In this document: positions 2,408 through 38,848 of the stretch, in pieces
Layout of the letters: the number at the start of each line of letters is the position of its first letter
How positions within the stretch are numbered: position 1 is the stretch's first letter
Origin: a virus
UHGV virus genome: UHGV-0212259
Direction: 5' to 3' (one strand)
DNA: 44,951 nt
Position numbers and translations under genes: made by a program
Notes under the pieces: generated by a model
What the model was told of the DNA's origin: nothing
Database searches by the model: none
What the model saw: the letters and a program-made list of their open reading frames with translations, nothing else

Positions 2408-2671
2408 CTATTCCAGAATATTCCTCACGTAATCCTGCAACATGAACACTTTCAGACGCAGTTGCCGCACGCATTCTGCGTTCTGAACGTCGATAGCTAA
2501 ATCCTCGTCCGCGTCGCTACTTGGTGGCGCCAGTTTGCACGGCGGCTGCATCATCGTCGTATCCGGGGATGGAATTGGCGTTGGCGACGGCGCGGGACTT
2601 GAGCTGCACGCGCTCAGGGTCAAAAGTGCACACGCTGCGACCAGGCGTTTTAATGTACTTAACGACTTCAC
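2408..2671 (-). CDS. o-spanin (Rz1-like outer-membrane lipoprotein)
   Basis: GTG start with GAGGTGA SD; signal peptide with lipobox LSAC; Pro-rich mature part; starts inside the i-spanin ORF in another frame and extends past its stop. Confidence 0.6.
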   Translation of the reverse strand: MKSLSTLKRLVAACALLTLSACSSSPAPSPTPIPSPDTTMMQPPCKLAPPSSDADEDLAIDVQNAECVRQLRLKVFMLQDYVRNILE

Positions 2672-2903
2672 GGGTAATCACCTCTGATTTCGTCTTGCCT
2701 TCGTTGTCAGCGGCTGCAGCCTTTGATTCGTCCTGCTGCTGCCGTTGTGTTTTCTTCGCTAACTCAGCCTGTGCCTTCTGCTGCTGCTGCGAAACGAGAT
2801 TCGCCCGGCCTTCGCTCCAGCCGCTGCGATACTGGTAGATGCCGTGTGCGTAAGCCAGGATGATGAAACATGCTCCCGCTACGACAGTTGCTTTAAGATT
2901 CAT
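2517..2903 (-). CDS. i-spanin (Rz-like inner-membrane spanin)
   Basis: N-terminal TM helix (VVAGACFIILAYAHGIY) followed by a Gln/Ala/Lys-rich coiled coil; overlaps the lipoprotein ORF in typical spanin architecture. Confidence 0.6.
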   Translation of the reverse strand: MNLKATVVAGACFIILAYAHGIYQYRSGWSEGRANLVSQQQQKAQAELAKKTQRQQQDESKAAAADNEGKTKSEVITREVVKYIKTPGRSVCTFDPERVQLKSRAVANANSIPGYDDDAAAVQTGATK

Positions 2904-3221
2904 GTTTCTCCTTTCTCGATAAGTAAAGCCCCGCCATAAAGCGGGGCGCTAGTCCTTATCATTTAAACATAGAAACGGCATAATCTCAGTAAACCAGTTA
3001 CTTTTTACACAAGCAATAGACTATGGCCCTTCCGAACGCGTCAGCGTAACTACACTCGGACTTAACGTCCGGCTCCGTTACCTGCCACGCCGCGGTCGCT
3101 TGTTCATACTTCACAAGCTCAGGTGGAGCTTAGCACATTTTTGGTGAAAAGTCAACTATTCGAATAGTTTATTCCAACATTTACAATTGAGTGGAATAAC
3201 CGGAATACATAAACAAATAGT

Positions 3222-3253
3222 TTGCGCACCCCAATATAATAGGGTACTATTCA
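3222..3253 (+). promoter_or_regulatory. Promoter with overlapping palindromic operator (type A: TTGCGC-N7-TATAAT overlapping TAATAGGGTACTATTCA)
   Basis: TATAAT at 3235..3240; 23-nt core CCAATATAATAGGGTACTATTCA identical to sites at 5375..5397 and 38826..38848; first ATG 25 nt downstream. Confidence 0.55.
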
Positions 3254-3277
3254 TTCTATCGAACCGGGGAGGCCGTC

Positions 3278-5365: not shown

Positions 5366-5397
5366 TTGCAGACACCAATATAATAGGGTACTATTCA
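5366..5397 (+). promoter_or_regulatory. Promoter with overlapping operator (type A), second copy
   Basis: TTGCAG-N7-TATAAT (5379..5384) overlapping TAATAGGGTACTATTCA; identical 23-nt core to 3231..3253. Confidence 0.55.
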
Positions 5398-5429
5398 TTA
5401 CATCAAAACGAGAGATAAGGAATTTAGAA

Positions 5430-5711
5430 ATGGCTAAATATTCAAACAGTAATTTACATATGACATGTGTGCATGTTGATGGTGTTCAAGTAGAGTGCGT
5501 CGCCTGTTGCAGGCCTTCATGCGAAGAAGGCATATTTAAAATAGGGCGCAAGTATTGGCTGCACCACGGGTGGTTGACGCGACCTAATGGGGATGCCGAT
5601 GTAGAACTTTGGTGGGTAGAGTATCATGGTCGCTCATATATCTGTTGGCCCGAAACGAAAAACGGCACCACCCGATACACCTCTTCCAGCAATGGATTCA
5701 TATTTGTATAA
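5430..5711 (+). CDS. Cys/Trp-rich small protein (93 aa), hypothetical; single-gene plus-strand insert
   Basis: ATG with AAGGAA SD; CVHVDGVQVECVACCRPSCEEG motif; flanked by own promoter and bidirectional terminator between head morphogenesis and portal genes. Confidence 0.45.
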   Translation: MAKYSNSNLHMTCVHVDGVQVECVACCRPSCEEGIFKIGRKYWLHHGWLTRPNGDADVELWWVEYHGRSYICWPETKNGTTRYTSSSNGFIFV

Positions 5712-5713
5712 AG

Positions 5714-5746
5714 AAAAGATAAGGCCCCTTAAGGGGCCTTTCTATT
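5714..5746. terminator. Bidirectional rho-independent terminator
   Basis: Hairpin AGGCCCC-tta-GGGGCCT at 5722..5738 with flanking A/T runs; between convergent Cys-rich gene and portal gene. Confidence 0.55.
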
Positions 5747-7215
5747 TACTCCTGTTGTTGCGCCGACTGCGGAATCTCTCCAGCCACCTGAGTAACAGCA
5801 CCCAACGGCAGAGGTGCGTCCTCAATAGCGTTCTGAATGTCCTCGTCCGTCCAGTCAGTTACACCTGCCTTGCGCAACGCAGCATAATAAGCGGTAGCCG
5901 GTAACAGACCCGCGTTAATATCCGCCATCCACTGAGCACGGTCCTGAGCGGTCATCGGTTGCAGGAAGAACTCCATGTTCAGTTTGAACTCAATCTCTGT
6001 GCCTTCGCGCAGCCCAAGCATCGCTGCCACCCAGCGCAACGCATCGGTGTACGCCATGCTTACGTTACGTGCGATTGTAGCCATAACGGACGTATCAGCG
6101 CCGCGTTGTAGACGGGCGGATTCAGCGGTTATTTGCTGCGTCGGCGTGATAAGCTGCGCGCCAATCTGAATGGCCTGATTCTCTTTATCCAGCATGTTTT
6201 GTTTGGCGAGGTTGTTCTCTCCTGCCTGAACCAGAAACGCATTACCGCCGTAACCAATGTTATGGCCTGAACGCGACCCCATGCGAACGCCGTGCGGGTT
6301 AGCCTCTTTCCACTGTTCCATGCTCATATTCTCACCAGGGGCGATGAACAGAGTGGGCTGGCCCACAACGAAACTGGACTCCTCATTGTCTGCGCTGTTG
6401 CGGAAATGCCCGATATTAAGCTCGGCCAACGGCAGCAAAGGCGCATCGTCGATGGTTGCATCGTTGTTGCTTGCACCAATAAACGTGAACGGGATTTTGC
6501 CGCGCAACTGTTCGCCAAGTTCCGGGAATATTTCGATTACGTCACCATGAGCGCCACCTTCTGCATCGAAGCGGTAAATGCGCTGGCGGTAGCGACCATC
6601 AATCAAATCGAGAACGCGGTATTGCTCACCGAATTTTGTTTCGAACTCTGCCCCAGGTTCCGAGTATTCCCATACCTCCCGTAACACGACCATTGTCACA
6701 CGGTTAACCGAACCGACGCGAGTCAATCGCCAGTTGATGATGTTCTCAGCGGTGTAGAATGCGATGACCGGGTTTAATAATCCCGCGTTCTGTTCTGCTG
6801 CCGTTGCCGCAGCTGTCTCCGGGGCGTCCACCAGCAACCCGCCACGGCCAACCGAGTCAATCTCCATTAGCGTATCCTGCGCGTGCTGCCACAGCCCGAC
6901 ACCAGAACCGTCCGCATTGCGTAACAGGTACTCAAGTTCAGGCGGGATAATCTGCTCAGGGTCTTTGCGCATAACACTGCCAACCATCCCCGCCAGTGTA
7001 CGTTTAGTGAAGTTGTAGCAGATAGCGCCGTTCTCGTATTCTTCCTGGCGCTGTGCTGCGTATGTCGGGTCTGGTTCGTTCTTCCCGACGTTGCGAAGAT
7101 AGCGAATAAGGTCGCCTTCCAGCGCGTGGCGTACCTTCTGCCATTTATCGAAGTGATGCAGCCATTCCCGGTGTTTTGTCTTAACACCCTGATTCTGACC
7201 GTTCATAGTTAACAT
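5746..7215 (-). CDS. Portal protein
   Basis: 489 aa immediately downstream of terminase large subunit; canonical position and size; no motif-level proof. Confidence 0.75.
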   Translation of the reverse strand: MLTMNGQNQGVKTKHREWLHHFDKWQKVRHALEGDLIRYLRNVGKNEPDPTYAAQRQEEYENGAICYNFTKRTLAGMVGSVMRKDPEQIIPPELEYLLRNADGSGVGLWQHAQDTLMEIDSVGRGGLLVDAPETAAATAAEQNAGLLNPVIAFYTAENIINWRLTRVGSVNRVTMVVLREVWEYSEPGAEFETKFGEQYRVLDLIDGRYRQRIYRFDAEGGAHGDVIEIFPELGEQLRGKIPFTFIGASNNDATIDDAPLLPLAELNIGHFRNSADNEESSFVVGQPTLFIAPGENMSMEQWKEANPHGVRMGSRSGHNIGYGGNAFLVQAGENNLAKQNMLDKENQAIQIGAQLITPTQQITAESARLQRGADTSVMATIARNVSMAYTDALRWVAAMLGLREGTEIEFKLNMEFFLQPMTAQDRAQWMADINAGLLPATAYYAALRKAGVTDWTDEDIQNAIEDAPLPLGAVTQVAGEIPQSAQQQE

Positions 7216-7227
7216 TTAATAATCCTC

Positions 7228-8478
7228 TTAAAGTGCGAAAGTCACCGGGATGTTGATTACTGGTTTAACCACCGGCATCTCATAAACTACAGGATAGCCG
7301 AGAGCATCTGCCATATGGTCAATGATGCCGTCTTTAGCTGGCTCTCCATTATCGTCGTATGCCTGCTGCTCCAGCGTCTTCGCTATCTCAGGGCATAAGT
7401 GGTCGTTAATCCACAGCTTACCTTTTTCCAGCGCGGTATTCACCGCTAAAACACGGTCTTTAACCGGGGGGTTGGCGGATTTAGCGCGAACATCAAAACC
7501 GGCCTGCTGTAGTAAGGCGATATCAGAGATTGATGCCGAGTTGGTTTTGCGGTTCTTGCCGCTGGCGTCGGGGTAAACGACGATGCGGTGGCCCTGCGAC
7601 TTCCACTTCTCGGTAATTACCCGCACGGTGTCTGGTGTATCGAACAGGCCTTTCAGTTCTGCAACCGCGTGCCAGCCGTCTTTACGCTGCACATACACGG
7701 CGCTGGCGTTCTTCGTAACGTTGAAGTCCTGCCCTATGTACAGCGTGTCCCCCGGTTGAATCGTCTCTTTGCTGCGATGTTTGCGGCGGTCATAGGCGTA
7801 ATACACGCTGCCGGAGGTAAGGTTGACGAACTCACCATTCAGGTACGCGTTAATCAGTTGCGCCGGGTAAGTCTCTGTCAGCGAGCTAATGTAATCCGGC
7901 GGAAGGAATCGCGCATTCTCGTGAGTTGATGCCTGCACCATTGAGTAACTCGGTGTCGGATTCTCTTTGAACTTGGCAAAGACGAACTTGAACCCTTCCG
8001 GCGTCGTGGTAACAGAGATGTGGTTAGTTACGCCAGGAATAACCAGACGCATACGGGCTACAATTTTGTTCCACGCCAGCTCAGCTTTTTCGCGACTCAA
8101 TACGTCCAGCTCATCCACGACCGCAGCCGCGATTTTGAAGCCCACAATCGAACCGGGGTTATCCATCGAACGGCAGATAACAGTACCGAGCACCGTCTTA
8201 CCCCGAGTAACCACAACCTCTTTGTCGCCGGATTTAACCAGCACATCAAGGCCGAGCAGGTTAGCCGCCTCCTCGAATGTTGGGTAGAAGATGTCGCGTA
8301 TGGCCGGGTATGTCGGGCCGAAGTAGCCAAGGCGCGTACCAGGGTGCTTTAGCATAAAAGTAAGCAGGTCAAGGCAGCCGACGAAGGTCTTGCCACTGCC
8401 GAAGCCGCCGACATAGGCCTTGTATTTGTTATCGCAATTCAGAAACAACGCCTGAGGGGCCGATAGCTGGATACTCAT
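7228..8478 (-). CDS. Terminase large subunit
   Basis: 416 aa; N-terminal Walker A-like GGFGSGKTF; start overlaps stop of upstream small-subunit gene; followed by portal. Confidence 0.85.
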   Translation of the reverse strand: MSIQLSAPQALFLNCDNKYKAYVGGFGSGKTFVGCLDLLTFMLKHPGTRLGYFGPTYPAIRDIFYPTFEEAANLLGLDVLVKSGDKEVVVTRGKTVLGTVICRSMDNPGSIVGFKIAAAVVDELDVLSREKAELAWNKIVARMRLVIPGVTNHISVTTTPEGFKFVFAKFKENPTPSYSMVQASTHENARFLPPDYISSLTETYPAQLINAYLNGEFVNLTSGSVYYAYDRRKHRSKETIQPGDTLYIGQDFNVTKNASAVYVQRKDGWHAVAELKGLFDTPDTVRVITEKWKSQGHRIVVYPDASGKNRKTNSASISDIALLQQAGFDVRAKSANPPVKDRVLAVNTALEKGKLWINDHLCPEIAKTLEQQAYDDNGEPAKDGIIDHMADALGYPVVYEMPVVKPVINIPVTFAL

Positions 8479-9020
8479 TCCTCCACCTCGCCCATATTCG
8501 TTGTTACTATTTTACCTACAGGCTCCGCGACACTGAAAATAATCTCGGTCGGTGCCGGTTCTTCGGTGGATTCGACTGGTTTATCTTTGCCAAGACCCAG
8601 CTTAGCCGCGGCAAACGTAGCAGAAATACCGGCGGCCCCTGTCTCGGTAAAGTATGCCTCTTCCAACGCCTGCGCGGTTTCATATGCTTCTGCAAATGCG
8701 GGAATCTCGCGCAACCACAGCTTAATAATCGGGATAGTGACGCCGATGTGCAAGGCAAAACGGGCCAATGACGGTGGTTTATCCTGAATCAGCGGGCGTT
8801 CGTCACCCTTTGACGTAGGCACTAGTTCCCACGACGTGCGGTCGAAGAAACGAATCAATTCGTCGCAATAGTCCGGGTCCCACAACGCGGCGGAATTACG
8901 GGATGATTGATAAAGGCTCTGTTTACCGCGCGGTCGTCTACGGCGACGGTTTGCGCTAACAGCTTCTTCATGTGCCGCTTGCACCACCTCTGGCGATGGC
9001 TGCTTAAGTTTCAGCTTCAT
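8475..9020 (-). CDS. Terminase small subunit (putative)
   Basis: About 181 aa ORF directly upstream of and overlapping the large terminase gene; basic N-terminal region; start placed at ATG 9020 with AAGGGGA SD (track ORF extends to 9059). Confidence 0.5.
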   Translation of the reverse strand: MKLKLKQPSPEVVQAAHEEAVSANRRRRRPRGKQSLYQSSRNSAALWDPDYCDELIRFFDRTSWELVPTSKGDERPLIQDKPPSLARFALHIGVTIPIIKLWLREIPAFAEAYETAQALEEAYFTETGAAGISATFAAAKLGLGKDKPVESTEEPAPTEIIFSVAEPVGKIVTTNMGEVEE

Positions 9021-9112
9021 AGAATCCCCTTGCATATGCGTCTGACCATCAGAGCGCACCAGACGCGCCCTACGCGTCTAAAGGGATTATATAAGGGGAT
9101 TGGGCGGGATGT

Positions 9113-9136
9113 ACAGAAAAGCCCTCCGTAGAGGGC
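9113..9136 (-). terminator. Rho-independent terminator closing the early small-gene block
   Basis: Hairpin GCCCTC-cgta-GAGGGC at 9121..9136 followed on the minus strand by UUUUCUGU. Confidence 0.5.
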
Positions 9137-9293
9137 TTGTGGTGTGGCTATTTTCGGCTTACCACCCATTGCAGTAATTGATTTATGCAATCTGCTTTCG
9201 AAAACCCGTTAAAGGACTTTGAGTAAACACCGTACATCACAGTCAAAAACACCGTTCCGCGGTATTCCTCAAATAAAACATCATCAAACTCAA

Positions 9294-9530
9294 TCATTCC
9301 CCACTCTCCTCTTTAGCAATACGTTGCTCAGTTTTAGTGATGCCCCTGCGCGTGAATAACACCGGGCTTGTCTTAACGTGCGTCATAAGACGGTTGTTAT
9401 AAATTACGTGGCGCTCGCAGTCAACGTCTTTGCTGTACTTCGCAATCGTCATTTCGTTGATGCCGGTTTGTCGGCATGTCTCCGCCATCGTGCCGTATTC
9501 TTTTATCAGGTTCGGAATGCTGGTAATCAT
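9294..9530 (-). CDS. Hypothetical small protein, possible HTH DNA-binding
   Basis: 78 aa; segment GTMAETCRQTGINEMTIAKYSKD resembles a helix-turn-helix. Confidence 0.3.
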   Translation of the reverse strand: MITSIPNLIKEYGTMAETCRQTGINEMTIAKYSKDVDCERHVIYNNRLMTHVKTSPVLFTRRGITKTEQRIAKEESGE

Positions 9531-9745
9531 TCTGCAGCAATCTCCACTATGGATATAATTGCAACCTTCGAGTTGGGTGGCATACGCGAGGCCACATCTG
9601 ATTCAATCGATCGAATATCCTTTACTGTAAGTTTTTCACCTTTTTCTGGTGACGCCGTACAGTTGCCGAAGCCAGTTCCTGCGACGCTTGTCCAGGCATA
9701 ACTGATAAAGAAACGTTTCATCATAAGAAATTCCTCGTTGTCCAC
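9527..9745 (-). CDS. Hypothetical small protein with N-terminal hydrophobic/signal-like segment
   Basis: 72 aa; MMKRFFISYAWTSVAGTGFG hydrophobic N-terminus. Confidence 0.3.
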   Translation of the reverse strand: MDNEEFLMMKRFFISYAWTSVAGTGFGNCTASPEKGEKLTVKDIRSIESDVASRMPPNSKVAIISIVEIAAE

Positions 9746-9888
9746 ATCGCATTCGGATATTTGTTATCGCGGTCCTGCACTACAGCAATCATGTTTCCAC
9801 GTTGCACCAGGCAGACGTGCCGCTGTTGCTCGCCGTTGTAGCGGCGCCAGATTGCTTCTTCGATTGCTGCGTTAATGTCACTGAACAT
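9724..9888 (-). CDS. Hypothetical small protein (about 54 aa)
   Basis: ATG-initiated ORF MFSDINAAIEEAIWRRYNGEQQRH... filling the gap between neighbouring genes; below ORF-track length cutoff. Confidence 0.25.
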
Positions 9889-10138
9889 ACCCAACGCCCC
9901 ACATAACTAACATCCCAACCGCTACACCAATGAGGATTGATACTGTGGTATTAGTCCACGCCCGCTGGCTGCGCAAAGTTTCGGCGTTCTCCAGAATATC
10001 GCGAACACGCATTAAGTGTTCAATCTCCAGTTTCGCGGCGGTCAGTTCCTGAGTTGCTTTTGAATATTTACCGTTAACCCTGTCGAGAGCCTTCTTAAGG
10101 TCTTTGTTGTTCTTCTTGAGTTGCTCGATCTGCTCCAT
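9878..10138 (-). CDS. Coiled-coil protein with C-terminal TM anchor
   Basis: 86 aa; heptad-like coiled coil (EQIEQLKKNNKDLKKALDRV...) then hydrophobic tail VSILIGVAVGMLVMWGVGYV. Confidence 0.4.
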   Translation of the reverse strand: MEQIEQLKKNNKDLKKALDRVNGKYSKATQELTAAKLEIEHLMRVRDILENAETLRSQRAWTNTTVSILIGVAVGMLVMWGVGYVQ

Positions 10139-10140
10139 AA

Positions 10141-10323
10141 CTACCCCACTATCTCGTCACCAAGCCACGCCGTTTCTCGTATATCGTCAACCACACAGGC
10201 GGCGTGCTCACGGCTAATTGCAAAAATGTAGAAGCTGAACTTCTTCCCGTCGGCGTCGATATGGTTAACCGAGTAGGGTTTCCACAAGACGCCATCGATA
10301 ACTACTGGTTTAGGCGACTCCAT
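10141..10323 (-). CDS. Hypothetical protein
   Basis: 60 aa ORF tightly packed in the early gene block. Confidence 0.3.
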   Translation of the reverse strand: MESPKPVVIDGVLWKPYSVNHIDADGKKFSFYIFAISREHAACVVDDIRETAWLGDEIVG

Positions 10324-10600
10324 CTTCTGGTCCGACTACATTGTCATACAGCGGGATTATTACGTCGGCTCCGTTCTTTAAGGCCCCGTTTGCCGTGGTG
10401 TAGTAGGCCAGTGACGAACCACTCTCACCGACGAACAACCCCGCGTACACGTTCGGTTCTTGCATCTTAATAGCCAGTAGCTCTTTAAACGCCTCCAGTT
10501 GAAACTCACCGTTAATTGATAGTTGCCCGCCTAACGTCTGTTTCTCTGACTCAAGCACCAGGATACGGTTCTCGAGTGATGCGATTGTGATTTTAGGCAT
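10310..10600 (-). CDS. Hypothetical protein
   Basis: 96 aa ORF; stop/start overlaps with neighbours. Confidence 0.35.
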   Translation of the reverse strand: MPKITIASLENRILVLESEKQTLGGQLSINGEFQLEAFKELLAIKMQEPNVYAGLFVGESGSSLAYYTTANGALKNGADVIIPLYDNVVGPEDGVA

Positions 10601-10851
10601 TATTCTGCTCCCTCATAAAAATCACCATTTCTGTAATCGCCATCAAAATCGTCGTTAGTAGGAGCAGGTTTGTTCAGGTTGAAGCGGTTAATCAGTTCAC
10701 GACGTGTCTCGTAAAGCGACTCTACCATTTGTTCAGCTACAGCGATTTTAGTATTCAGGACGTGCATCACGTGGCTGATGTCTACGCCGCCGTTAACAGC
10801 CTCTACCATCATCTTTTCGTATTCGCGGTCAGTCATTTCTTCTCTCCCCAC
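10600..10851 (-). CDS. Hypothetical protein
   Basis: 83 aa ORF (alternative ATG at 10833). Confidence 0.35.
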   Translation of the reverse strand: MGREEMTDREYEKMMVEAVNGGVDISHVMHVLNTKIAVAEQMVESLYETRRELINRFNLNKPAPTNDDFDGDYRNGDFYEGAE

Positions 10852-10988
10852 ATGCGATTGAGATACTTGTTCTTGTCCGGCCCAGGGAAACTGTTACGTT
10901 TCATCAGTTCCTCGCGTGTAGGGAACGGGGTGTTACTGACTTTACGGCCTACTCGTAATGGTTGGCTTACTTGACCTTGTTCGCTCAT
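10830..10988 (-). CDS. Hypothetical small protein (about 52 aa)
   Basis: ATG ORF MSEQGQVSQPLRVGRKVSNTPFPTREEL...; overlaps neighbours by a few nt. Confidence 0.25.
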
Positions 10989-11137
10989 TTCTTCTCTCCT
11001 GCGTAAGCTGCTTTCAGTGTTTGCATCGCAGCGAACCAGAACGCGTCAGCGGGGATACTGCTACTAAGGTTACTAACGGCGATACGTGCCATCAGTTGTG
11101 CGTCTTTGAATGCTTCGATATCTGTGATTTTCATCTT
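10985..11137 (-). CDS. Hypothetical small protein (about 50 aa)
   Basis: ATG ORF MKITDIEAFKDAQLMARIAV... about 25 nt downstream of the predicted transcription start of the minus-strand promoter at 11168..11196. Confidence 0.25.
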   Translation of the reverse strand, partial: KMKITDIEAFKDAQLMARIAVSNLSSSIPADAFWFAAMQTLKAAYAGEKK

Positions 11138-11167: not shown

Positions 11168-11196
11168 AATATAATAGGGTCGAAGGTAATAGTCAA
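11168..11196 (-). promoter_or_regulatory. Sigma70-like promoter (TTGACT-17-TATATT) with operator palindrome overlapping the -35
   Basis: Minus-strand TTGACT (11196..11191), 17-nt spacer, TATATT (11173..11168); operator TGAATAGTTGACTATTA spans the -35. Confidence 0.5.
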
Positions 11197-11218
11197 CTAT
11201 TCATTGCAGAAAATAGAT

Positions 11219-11250
11219 AAAAAAAAATCCCGGCTGGGTCAGGGCCGGGA
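11219..11250 (-). terminator. Rho-independent terminator after the endolysin gene
   Basis: Hairpin TCCCGGC..GCCGGGA at 11228..11250 followed on the minus strand by a 9-nt U-run. Confidence 0.65.
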
Positions 11251-11403
11251 TAAAACTGGAGAGCAGAGGGATGGAGCAGGAGGTGATTTAAGTATCGTCG
11301 GATTAGTCTCAGGTGTCAACCTTTACGGAGAGTGTCAATCACACCCCAAATCACGCCAGTTATCGCACCAGCCCAATAGCCAGGAAAATGAAGTCAAACT
11401 CTG

Positions 11404-14440: not shown

Positions 14441-14472
14441 TGAATAGTAGTCTATTCTATCTCAGTGTGCAA
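14441..14472 (-). promoter_or_regulatory. Promoter with overlapping operator (type A, minus strand)
   Basis: Minus-strand TTGCAC-N7-TAGAAT followed by AGACTACTATTCA; palindrome TGAATAGTAGTCTATTC at 14441..14457; about 30 nt upstream of ATG 14412. Confidence 0.5.
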
Positions 14473-16036: not shown

Positions 16037-16068
16037 TGAATAGTAACCTATTATGTTGGGGTGTGCAA
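16037..16068 (-). promoter_or_regulatory. Promoter with overlapping operator (type A, minus strand)
   Basis: Minus-strand TTGCAC-ACCCCAA-CATAAT-AGGTTACTATTCA, near-identical to the plus-strand 23-nt core. Confidence 0.5.
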
Positions 16069-19471: not shown

Positions 19472-19500
19472 TTGATATGTGAATAGTACCATATTAATTA
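19472..19500 (+). promoter_or_regulatory. Promoter/operator, upstream copy of a tandem pair
   Basis: TTGATA-17-TAATTA with palindrome TGAATAGTACCATATTA in the spacer. Confidence 0.4.
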
Positions 19501-19515: not shown

Positions 19516-19544
19516 TTGACATGTGAATAGTTCGCTATTATAGT
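19516..19544 (+). promoter_or_regulatory. Sigma70 consensus-like promoter with operator in the spacer (type B)
   Basis: TTGACA (19516..19521), 17-nt spacer containing GAATAGTTCGCTATT, TATAGT (19539..19544); about 30 nt upstream of first early plus-strand ORF. Confidence 0.6.
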
Positions 19545-22004: not shown

Positions 22005-22029
22005 CACCTGAATAGTTAGCTATTATATT
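22001..22029 (+). promoter_or_regulatory. Sigma70-like promoter with operator in spacer (type B) upstream of SSB-like gene
   Basis: TTGACA (22001..22006), 17-nt spacer containing TGAATAGTTAGCTAT, TATATT (22024..22029). Confidence 0.55.
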
Positions 22030-38709: not shown

Positions 38710-38816
38710 TCTTTAATCCTTTGGTTAAGAGGTTACTGGTTAAGGTGAATGCGCCAGGCGGGAACCACCCGCTTTTCGTGTGCGACACTAGGCGCAAACT
38801 TATTCTAGCACACTAC

Positions 38817-38848
38817 TTGCAGGCCCCAATATAATAGGGTACTATTCA
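38817..38848 (+). promoter_or_regulatory. Promoter with overlapping operator (type A), third identical copy
   Basis: TTGCAG-GCCCCAA-TATAAT (38830..38835) overlapping TAATAGGGTACTATTCA. Confidence 0.55.

Follow-up and report, generated by a model that had tools for sequence, protein, structure and literature searches.

Promoters of the extended -10 class (TGnTATAAT) are used by the sigma70 holoenzyme without a -35 element or an activator. At the other end of the process, RppH and RNase E require unpaired 5' nucleotides, and 5'-terminal stem-loops such as that of the ompA 5' untranslated region (UTR) reportedly stabilise E. coli mRNAs, a result ascribed to Emory, Bouvet and Belasco in 1992. Paired RNA near a promoter is also known from the put RNAs of phage HK022 (putL and putR) and their relatives in HK75, HK639, phiEt88 and other enterobacterial phages, which are about 72 nt long with bulged stems and a triplex (PMC9378689) and which work in the early operons of temperate lambdoid phages. 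Phage genomes are further partitioned by terminator-promoter junctions, in which a hairpin and its T-tract are directly followed by a promoter. Here we describe such a junction, joined to a structured leader, in the virus genome UHGV-0212259 (44,951 nt; this whole stretch is called the window, and positions are counted from its first letter). It lies on the minus strand before the gene for the small terminase subunit (terS), and sequence comparison finds the cassette of terminator, promoter and covarying leader conserved in more than 500 genomes over three phage groups, with the leader absent from Rfam. We consider it fairly likely (roughly 60%) that the cassette would act as the sigma70 promoter of an insulated terS-terL-portal unit, followed by a 5'-terminal two-hairpin leader with a stabilising or regulatory role.

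The minus strand at this locus reads AAGCCCTC-TACG-GAGGGCTT-TTCTGTACATCCCGCCCAATCCCCTTATATAATCCCTTTAGACGCG..., and the following elements were placed on it, in the order of transcription:

9115..9138, minus strand: intrinsic terminator, hairpin AAGCCCTC-TACG-GAGGGCTT (9138..9119) and T-tract TTTTCT (9120..9115), from folding and covariation
9110..9115, minus strand: -35-like hexamer TGTACA (4/6, without the TTG core), from a promoter scan and conservation
9092..9109, minus strand: promoter spacer of 18 nt, TCCCGCCCAATCCCCTTA, from the sequence
9086..9091, minus strand: -10 hexamer TATAAT (6/6), from a consensus scan and kept in all lineages examined
9079..9085, minus strand: discriminator CCCTTT (9085..9080) and predicted start A9079, from the usual 7-nt distance after the -10
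9060..9080, minus strand: leader hairpin HP1, UAGACGCGU-AGG-GCGCGUCUG, from the minimum-energy fold and covariation
9036..9059, minus strand: leader hairpin HP2, GUGCG-C-UCUGA-UGG-UCAGA-CGCAU, from the minimum-energy fold and covariation, its apical GAUGGUC invariant across lineages
9025..9031, minus strand: terS Shine-Dalgarno sequence AAGGGGA, predicted unpaired with a probability of 0.74 in the promoter-initiated transcript

An earlier note, made from the sequence alone, had proposed a late promoter upstream of the terminase operon, with an extended -10-like box at about 9087..9094 and no recognisable -35, which was taken to fit dependence on an activator or phage factor. The box is present one nucleotide away, as TATATAAT at 9093..9086 within ...CCCAATCCCCTTATATAATCCC (9104..9083). 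It is not a true extended -10, because TTA instead of TGn precedes TATAAT, and a -35-like hexamer does exist: TGTACA at 9115..9110 matches TTGACA at four of six positions across a spacer of 18 nt. A promoter consensus scan recovered TGTACA-18-TATAAT with 10 of 12 matches as the sole match within 7500..11000, and 59 nt of untranslated leader separate the predicted start from the terS ATG at 9020. The position, the perfect -10 and a clean phylogenetic footprint thus bear out a promoter upstream of the terminase operon, while the lack of a -35 falls away as a basis for factor dependence. Judged on these features, the flagged box very probably is a genuine promoter of the host type that serves the packaging genes, an ordinary kind of element that had been slightly misdescribed. 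It resembles -10-dominated sigma70 promoters, including the extended -10 class, in its perfect TATAAT, poor -35, fixed spacing of 17-18 nt and position in a non-coding gap before an operon, and its homologues in Dhillonviruses carry the TGn extension. It differs from them in the TTA before the hexamer and in a -35 that merges with the T-tract of the terminator before it; the promoter described here is also a predicted one.

The footprint comes from a large set of relatives. Over positions 8400..9700 the window has 96% identity to Escherichia phage CR01, a Kagunavirus, and the same segment has matches in 169 phage records, for the most part from Escherichia and Salmonella phages of the Kagunavirus/Jerseyvirus group (subfamily Guernseyvirinae), identities that place the window as a Kagunavirus genome. 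Conservation from the terminator through to the ATG extends to 387 phage records and to 50 IMG/VR loci; in the latter, at least five unrelated sequences take the place of the upstream gene. Between Kaguna- and Jerseyviruses, TTTTCTGTACA is identical at 11 of 11 positions and invariant in all variants of both, the spacer is identical at only 6 of 18 positions with its length held at 18 nt, and the -10 agrees at five of six (TATAAT or TACAAT). An invariant hexamer beside a scrambled spacer of fixed length points to a weak -35 at this place. The upstream sequence differs in phiEap-2-type phages, which again have a 4/6 hexamer in TTGCCT-17-TATAAT. Dhillonviruses carry TGtTATAAT or TGaTATAAT, a genuine extended -10, and Edwardsiella phage eiAU (Eiauvirus) carries TATATAAT in the context GCTATATAAT. 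In both of these groups the arrangement is the same as in the window, though their small terminase proteins (TerS) are only 28-31% identical between groups, and the Dhillon-type cassette was found in 157 further records. Across every lineage examined the -10 is kept as TATAAT or TACAAT. The recurring design, as read from these alignments, is a perfect -10 with a weak -35; the earlier note caught this in part, and such a design does not imply that an activator is required.

When IMG/VR was scanned for exact patterns, with a leader 16-mer and a terminator/-35 15-mer, every occurrence of the element preceded terS of this same phage group, and the remaining matches were unrelated and due to chance. 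The cassette was not found in Citrobacter phage K1M, which has a TerS homologue; a high-GC metagenomic relative (L294) has a single doubtful hairpin only; and the record of Salmonella phage MB78 begins inside terS and is uninformative on the promoter. Two recombinant cassettes were also seen, in Salmonella phage L223 (L160, 400-535) and in SE129_1TP2 (L161), both combining a Jersey-type terminator and leader with a Kaguna-type spacer, from which it follows that exchange points exist inside the control region of about 120 bp.

The leader is the most distinctive part of the cassette. HP1 and HP2 are directly adjacent, with a joint fold of -24.2 kcal/mol; HP1 begins at the transcription start predicted for each lineage, or at most 1-2 nt from it, and HP2 ends 4 nt before the Shine-Dalgarno sequence. 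The two-hairpin fold is the minimum-energy structure in seven of eight lineages. Among 21 distinct Guernseyvirinae leaders, 98.5% of pair cells hold standard pairs, compared to 19-56% after sliding of the 3' partners; one pair per helix has changed on both sides (G-C/U-G/C-G and C-G/A-U), and seven pairs vary only by G·U-compatible changes. The C-G to A-U compensation in HP2 is seen in Jerseyviruses and in phiEap-2. Counted by hand, sense-strand pairing holds in 97.9% of cells, a share that falls to 85.3% with G·U disallowed, and a covariance model gives 60-77 bits for the sense strand compared to 7-9 bits for the antisense strand at the same place. This dependence on G·U pairs points to an RNA of the sense strand and away from a DNA palindrome or antisense RNA.

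The same architecture recurs with other stems outside Guernseyvirinae. HP1 is AGAUGGC-AGG-GCCGUCU in Dhillonvirus A, AGGUGGU-UGG-GCCACCU in Dhillonvirus B and GGCGGGCC-AGG-GGUCCGCC in eiAU, with the AGG/UGG triloop retained in each, and the upper stem of HP2 is GCCGA/UCGGC in Dhillonviruses and UGGA/UCCA in eiAU around an unchanged apical GAUGGUC. A covariance model built from Guernseyvirinae alone detected the leader at full length and in the right position in Dhillonviruses (E 0.006-0.015) and in eiAU (E 0.025); the Dhillonvirus B copy matched with filters off (E 0.11). Within the window the model finds a single copy. Against Rfam, the region 8800..9400 had no credible match with E values of up to 10, and a scan of the whole window gave none at the leader. 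The leader is far better conserved than TerS, and its carriers are more than 500 sequenced virulent siphoviruses from at least three taxa (Guernseyvirinae, Dhillonvirus and Eiauvirus).

Conservation next to terS could also reflect a DNA site, either pac or a TerS binding site for headful packaging. P1-like headful packaging has been reported for Jerseyviruses, their pac site being unmapped (PMC10783031), and the location adjoins terS. The pattern of change makes such a site very unlikely: substitutions preserve the hairpins, being compensatory or of the G·U type, and do so on the sense strand alone, and the stems are wholly different in Dhillonvirus B and eiAU, which would be unexpected for a double-stranded recognition site. 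That records begin or end near this region offers the pac site no help either, since record starts here follow an annotation convention (the start of the longest open reading frame, ORF) and not physical ends.

Another question is whether HP2 is conserved as coding sequence, with terS starting from GTG 9059 (194 amino acids, aa) as in several GenBank records. The frame is open from the GTG or ATG at 9059 to ATG 9020 in Kagunavirus, Jerseyvirus, phiEap-2 and one further lineage (L234), with lengths of 39, 42 and 45 nt; EC3-1 and other records annotate a 585-nt gene, and several records have their own first base at this start codon. The peptide predicted from this start is VRSDGQTHMQGDS-. Over the 13 supposed codons between GTG 9059 and ATG 9020, differences from Jerseyvirus fall 3/4/3 on the codon positions, with 0 synonymous and 7 non-synonymous changes, compared to 17/10/71 over the next 150 codons of terS proper, with 65 synonymous and 14 non-synonymous changes. 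Inside HP2, the window and Jerseyvirus differ at two positions, which form the compensatory pair. Moreover, L231-type phages and Dhillonviruses have the upstream start in another frame, an in-frame stop interrupts the extension in STP-1, and alignments of the PHROG profile and of distant TerS homologues begin at the downstream methionine. On this substitution pattern the leader is non-coding and terS starts at ATG 9020, 39 nt downstream of GTG 9059, to give 181 aa; a coding origin for the conservation of HP2 is scarcely credible. In GenBank relatives terS is misannotated from the GTG/ATG at the foot of HP2 (9057-9059 on the minus strand), for example in EC3-1 (L051, 6658-7242). Two further candidates were rejected. 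The frame and stop of an upstream ORF from the AUG inside GAUGGUC are not conserved between lineages, and a resemblance to lambda-type boxA (CGCUCUGA here; the lambda-type sequence is CGCUCUUA) is not conserved in Jersey or Dhillon sequences.

With two hairpins that would act as RNA in the sense transcript, several functions may be considered. In the reading that we prefer, host sigma70 RNA polymerase would read the promoter through TATAAT at 9091..9086 and the weak, conserved TGTACA at 9115..9110, and would start at A9079, the first base of HP1; HP2 would follow without a gap, then an unstructured Shine-Dalgarno sequence and ATG 9020. The base-paired 5' end would protect the packaging mRNA from 5'-end-dependent decay by RppH and RNase E, and the invariant loops (AGG/UGG and GAUGGUC) may additionally form a recognition site that tunes terS expression. 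The likeness is to the ompA 5' UTR, in which hp1 and hp2 are followed by a single-stranded ribosome-binding region: a hairpin at the 5' end, a second hairpin and an unstructured Shine-Dalgarno sequence, here with covarying stems. The two share no sequence similarity, the stabilisation at this locus is predicted, and the loops of the leader keep their sequence from genus to genus, something that a stabiliser alone would not need. A protective 5'-terminal hairpin is the best-supported function for the leader, and the invariant loops hint at a specific partner.

How such a partner might act can be pictured in more than one way. One possibility is a protein-binding operator on the mRNA: its AGG/UGG and GAUGGUC loops would be bound by TerS, by a different phage protein or by an RNA-binding protein of the host, and the binding would set how well the packaging mRNA is translated or how stable it is. 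Such an operator agrees with the promoter reading and competes only for the function of the leader. It would account for loops that are invariant over stems that covary across three phage groups, for a leader much better conserved than TerS, and for an HP2 that ends just before the Shine-Dalgarno sequence. The N-terminal region of TerS usually binds nucleic acid, though this region is not conserved between groups; CsrA sites carry a GGA motif that the loops do not have; and no binding partner was identified, so that we regard an operator as unlikely. Somewhat less doubtful, and still tentative, is the broader proposal that the leader is a dedicated cis-regulatory RNA of the packaging operon, undescribed so far, with a specific partner that might be RNA polymerase, the ribosome or a phage protein.

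One variant of this proposal involves the promoter spacer. Here AATCCCCTT (9101..9093) is the exact reverse complement of the terS Shine-Dalgarno region AAGGGGATT (9031..9023), and in a read-through transcript the two are predicted to pair (z -3.7). The predicted probability that the Shine-Dalgarno sequence is unpaired is 0.20 in read-through RNA compared to 0.74 in promoter-initiated RNA, with the same direction in 10 of 10 lineage variants tested. The duplex is not consistently better than in shuffled sequences across lineages, and the spacer sequence is polymorphic in relatives. That only transcripts from the unit's own promoter might be well translated, with read-through RNA hiding the ribosome-binding site, is a weak idea suggested by this model of the fold.

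The put RNAs of HK022 resemble the leader in layout, being likewise promoter-proximal and made of two stem-loops with at most a few bases between, in enterobacterial phages with same-strand terminators downstream. If the leader acted as put does, the nascent two-hairpin RNA would bind RNA polymerase and make it resistant to terminators further down the late region. Two adjacent hairpins do stand right after the predicted start, as for putL (PMC9378689), and the minus-strand late region holds terminator-like hairpins at 5740, 3813, 2947, 556 and 41296. HK022 putL even begins UAGACG...GGCGCGUCU, much like HP1, but the stem in question is variable among put RNAs (GUCG/CGAC in most members). Covariance models were run in both directions with a put set of eight RNAs (putL, putR and six relatives): the put model found putL (4e-22) and putR (1e-11) and nothing at any terS leader, and the leader model found nothing in HK022 or the six other put loci. 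None of the sequences invariant among put RNAs (CGAACGG, GUCGG, GGCGGGYUCAGGA and CGGCAAU) occurs in the terS leader, which consists of 45 nt of plain hairpins in contrast to the longer, bulged and triplex-forming put RNAs. In addition, the first terminator downstream of the leader is followed by a promoter of its own, so that read-through would not be needed. Membership in the put family is rejected on the lack of cross-detection and of the signature sequences, the resemblance is architectural only, and a put-like action of the leader is highly improbable. A separate match of the put model lies inside terL of a Dhillonvirus contig (L216, 2297-2359, plus strand; 22.9 bits, rough E 6e-4) and is probably due to chance.

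The terminator upstream of the promoter is itself well formed. Its 8-bp G+C-rich hairpin, with an RNA fold of -15.2 kcal/mol (z -3.05), is followed by UUUUCU, and its stem has undergone a compensatory change from CCCTC/GAGGG to CCCGC/GCGGG in Jerseyviruses, with variable loops; a simple, strict terminator scan did not flag the hairpin at 9138..9115. The end of the T-tract overlaps the -35-like hexamer at the shared position 9115. This terminator, with its T-tract running into the -35, would shield the unit from transcription of the preceding genes. On the minus strand a block of small genes stops at 9148, and after a gap of 127 nt come terS, terL (the large terminase subunit) and portal:

9148..9297, minus strand: last small ORF of the upstream transcription unit, 49 aa, TAG stop at 9150..9148, phrog_16162 (unknown function)
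8475..9020, minus strand: terS, small terminase, 181 aa from ATG 9020, phrog_3064 terminase (E 5e-73), profile alignment from residue 1
8478..7228, minus strand: terL, PHROG match to terminase large subunit
7215..5746, minus strand: portal, PHROG match to portal protein
5711..5740, minus strand: terminator-like hairpin AAGGCCCCTTAAGGGGCCTT plus ATCTTTTCTT (hairpin 5740..5721), from a terminator scan, directly 3' of portal

The stop of terS and the start of terL overlap as ATGA (8475-8478, minus strand), a sequence that suggests translational coupling of the two terminase subunits. The promoter would drive a short, self-contained terS-terL-portal unit, and its position makes the hairpin at 5711..5740 the likely end of this unit, where a second terminator (5740..5721) would close it. 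A separate promoter (5406..5377, minus strand), of a family described below, comes after this terminator. A second terminator-promoter junction lies at 11255..11168 on the minus strand (region 11168-11265), where CCCGGC...GCCGGG and T9 are followed by ATGAATAGTTGACTATTACCTTCGACCCTATTATATT. The terminator after portal, the promoter downstream of it and this second junction indicate that the genome is made of terminator-bounded units, of which terS-terL-portal is one. The terS junction shares with terminator-promoter junctions in general a hairpin and T-tract that run directly into a promoter, and differs in that junction and leader are kept as one cassette across genera with the flanking genes swapped.

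The other promoters of the genome are of a different kind. An 18-bp motif, TGAATAGTACCCTATTAT, has eight copies in the window, compared to 0.02 expected:

3236-3253 (-), 5380-5397 (-), 14441-14458 (+), 16037-16054 (+), 19480-19497 (+), 19524-19541 (+), 22009-22026 (+) and 38831-38848 (-): copies of the 18-bp motif

It spans the spacer and the -10 in sigma70-like promoters that have the form TTGAYR-N2-3-TGAATAGTACCCTATTATATTGGGGTGTGCAA (the motif followed by ATTGGGGTGTGCAA) and has a partly palindromic core, AATAG-N5-CTATT. These promoters precede replication genes and also the head (5406..5377) and tail (near 38848) modules. Papers based on PHIRE call the motif 'phage promoters' (PMC9825357); from its distribution it looks like the phage's main promoter family, possibly with an operator for a phage regulator. 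Two observations concern individual copies. The sole Rfam match in the window, an int-alpA RNA (RF02996) at 38734-38798 on the minus strand (36.4 bits compared to a gathering threshold of 35.8), lies directly downstream of the motif-type promoter at 38848..38831. At about 3232..2928 on the minus strand, between a motif-type promoter (3262..3233) and a strong terminator (2947..2928), about 300 nt hold no obvious ORF, and this layout makes them a candidate non-coding RNA or long leader before a 128-aa gene (2903..2517).

Set against this family, the terS promoter might be thought a late promoter, poorly used by sigma70 polymerase alone and switched on by a phage-encoded activator or sigma-like factor. 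It has a weak -35 (4/6 at 18 nt), it differs from the eight motif promoters, several of which have a TTGACA-type -35, and may thus belong to another temporal class, and the invariant, palindromic TGTACA could conceivably be a protein site. A factor-dependent late class with a shared motif, as in T4, P2 or Mu, should recur, and a check suggested with the earlier note was to look for the same motif before other late operons: the terS promoter sequence, or parts of it, has no second copy in the genome, and the other structural operons carry the 18-bp motif instead. With a unique terS promoter and another motif elsewhere, the terminase promoter is the odd one out and not a member of a shared late class. 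The replacement of TGTACA by TTGCCT at 17 nt in phiEap-2-type phages fits a generic -35 and not a specific factor site, and the Dhillonvirus homologues are true extended -10 promoters. The T4 late consensus is TATAAATA, from which TATATAAT differs, and 10 neighbouring proteins scanned, short of a screen of the whole proteome, included no activator or sigma candidate. A dependence on such a factor is therefore improbable, late timing likewise finds no support in these comparisons, and use of the promoter by sigma70 polymerase without a helper is the reading that we favour.

Several results weigh against our interpretation of the cassette as a sigma70 promoter with a stabilising leader. First, the promoter motifs are unremarkable in number: TATATAAT has 2 copies in the window compared to 1.19 expected, TATAAT has 19 compared to 20 and is not enriched, and promoter-like matches are no commoner than in shuffled sequence. 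The box rises above chance because of its position and its conservation in relatives, not because of the motif itself. Second, the -35 has only 4/6 matches, without the TTG core and at a suboptimal spacing of 18 nt, which leaves room for a helper factor, and the literature searched gives no mapped transcription start for Guernseyvirinae or Dhillonvirus, the one RNA-seq study being gene-level and coarse. Third, the fold energies of the leader are only modestly better than those of shuffled sequences (z -0.5 to -2.3), in statistics that ignore relatedness, and with about seven independent lineages and many near-identical sequences the covariation statistics are inflated by relatedness. Lastly, a generic 5' stabiliser does not explain the invariance of the loops across genera.

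A sigma70 promoter before a terminase gene is by itself routine annotation. The comparison corrects a recurrent misannotation of the terS start in GenBank, from the GTG/ATG at the foot of HP2, and the cassette of about 120 bp could serve as a compact insulated expression part. The less ordinary part, missed by the earlier note, is a structured leader RNA with covariation support that lies outside Rfam and is conserved far beyond the protein it precedes, a pattern that usually signals a specific function. In Kagunavirus, Jerseyvirus and Dhillonvirus, whose members are widely used candidates for phage therapy, the packaging genes appear to form an insulated unit with a control region distinct from the main promoter family.

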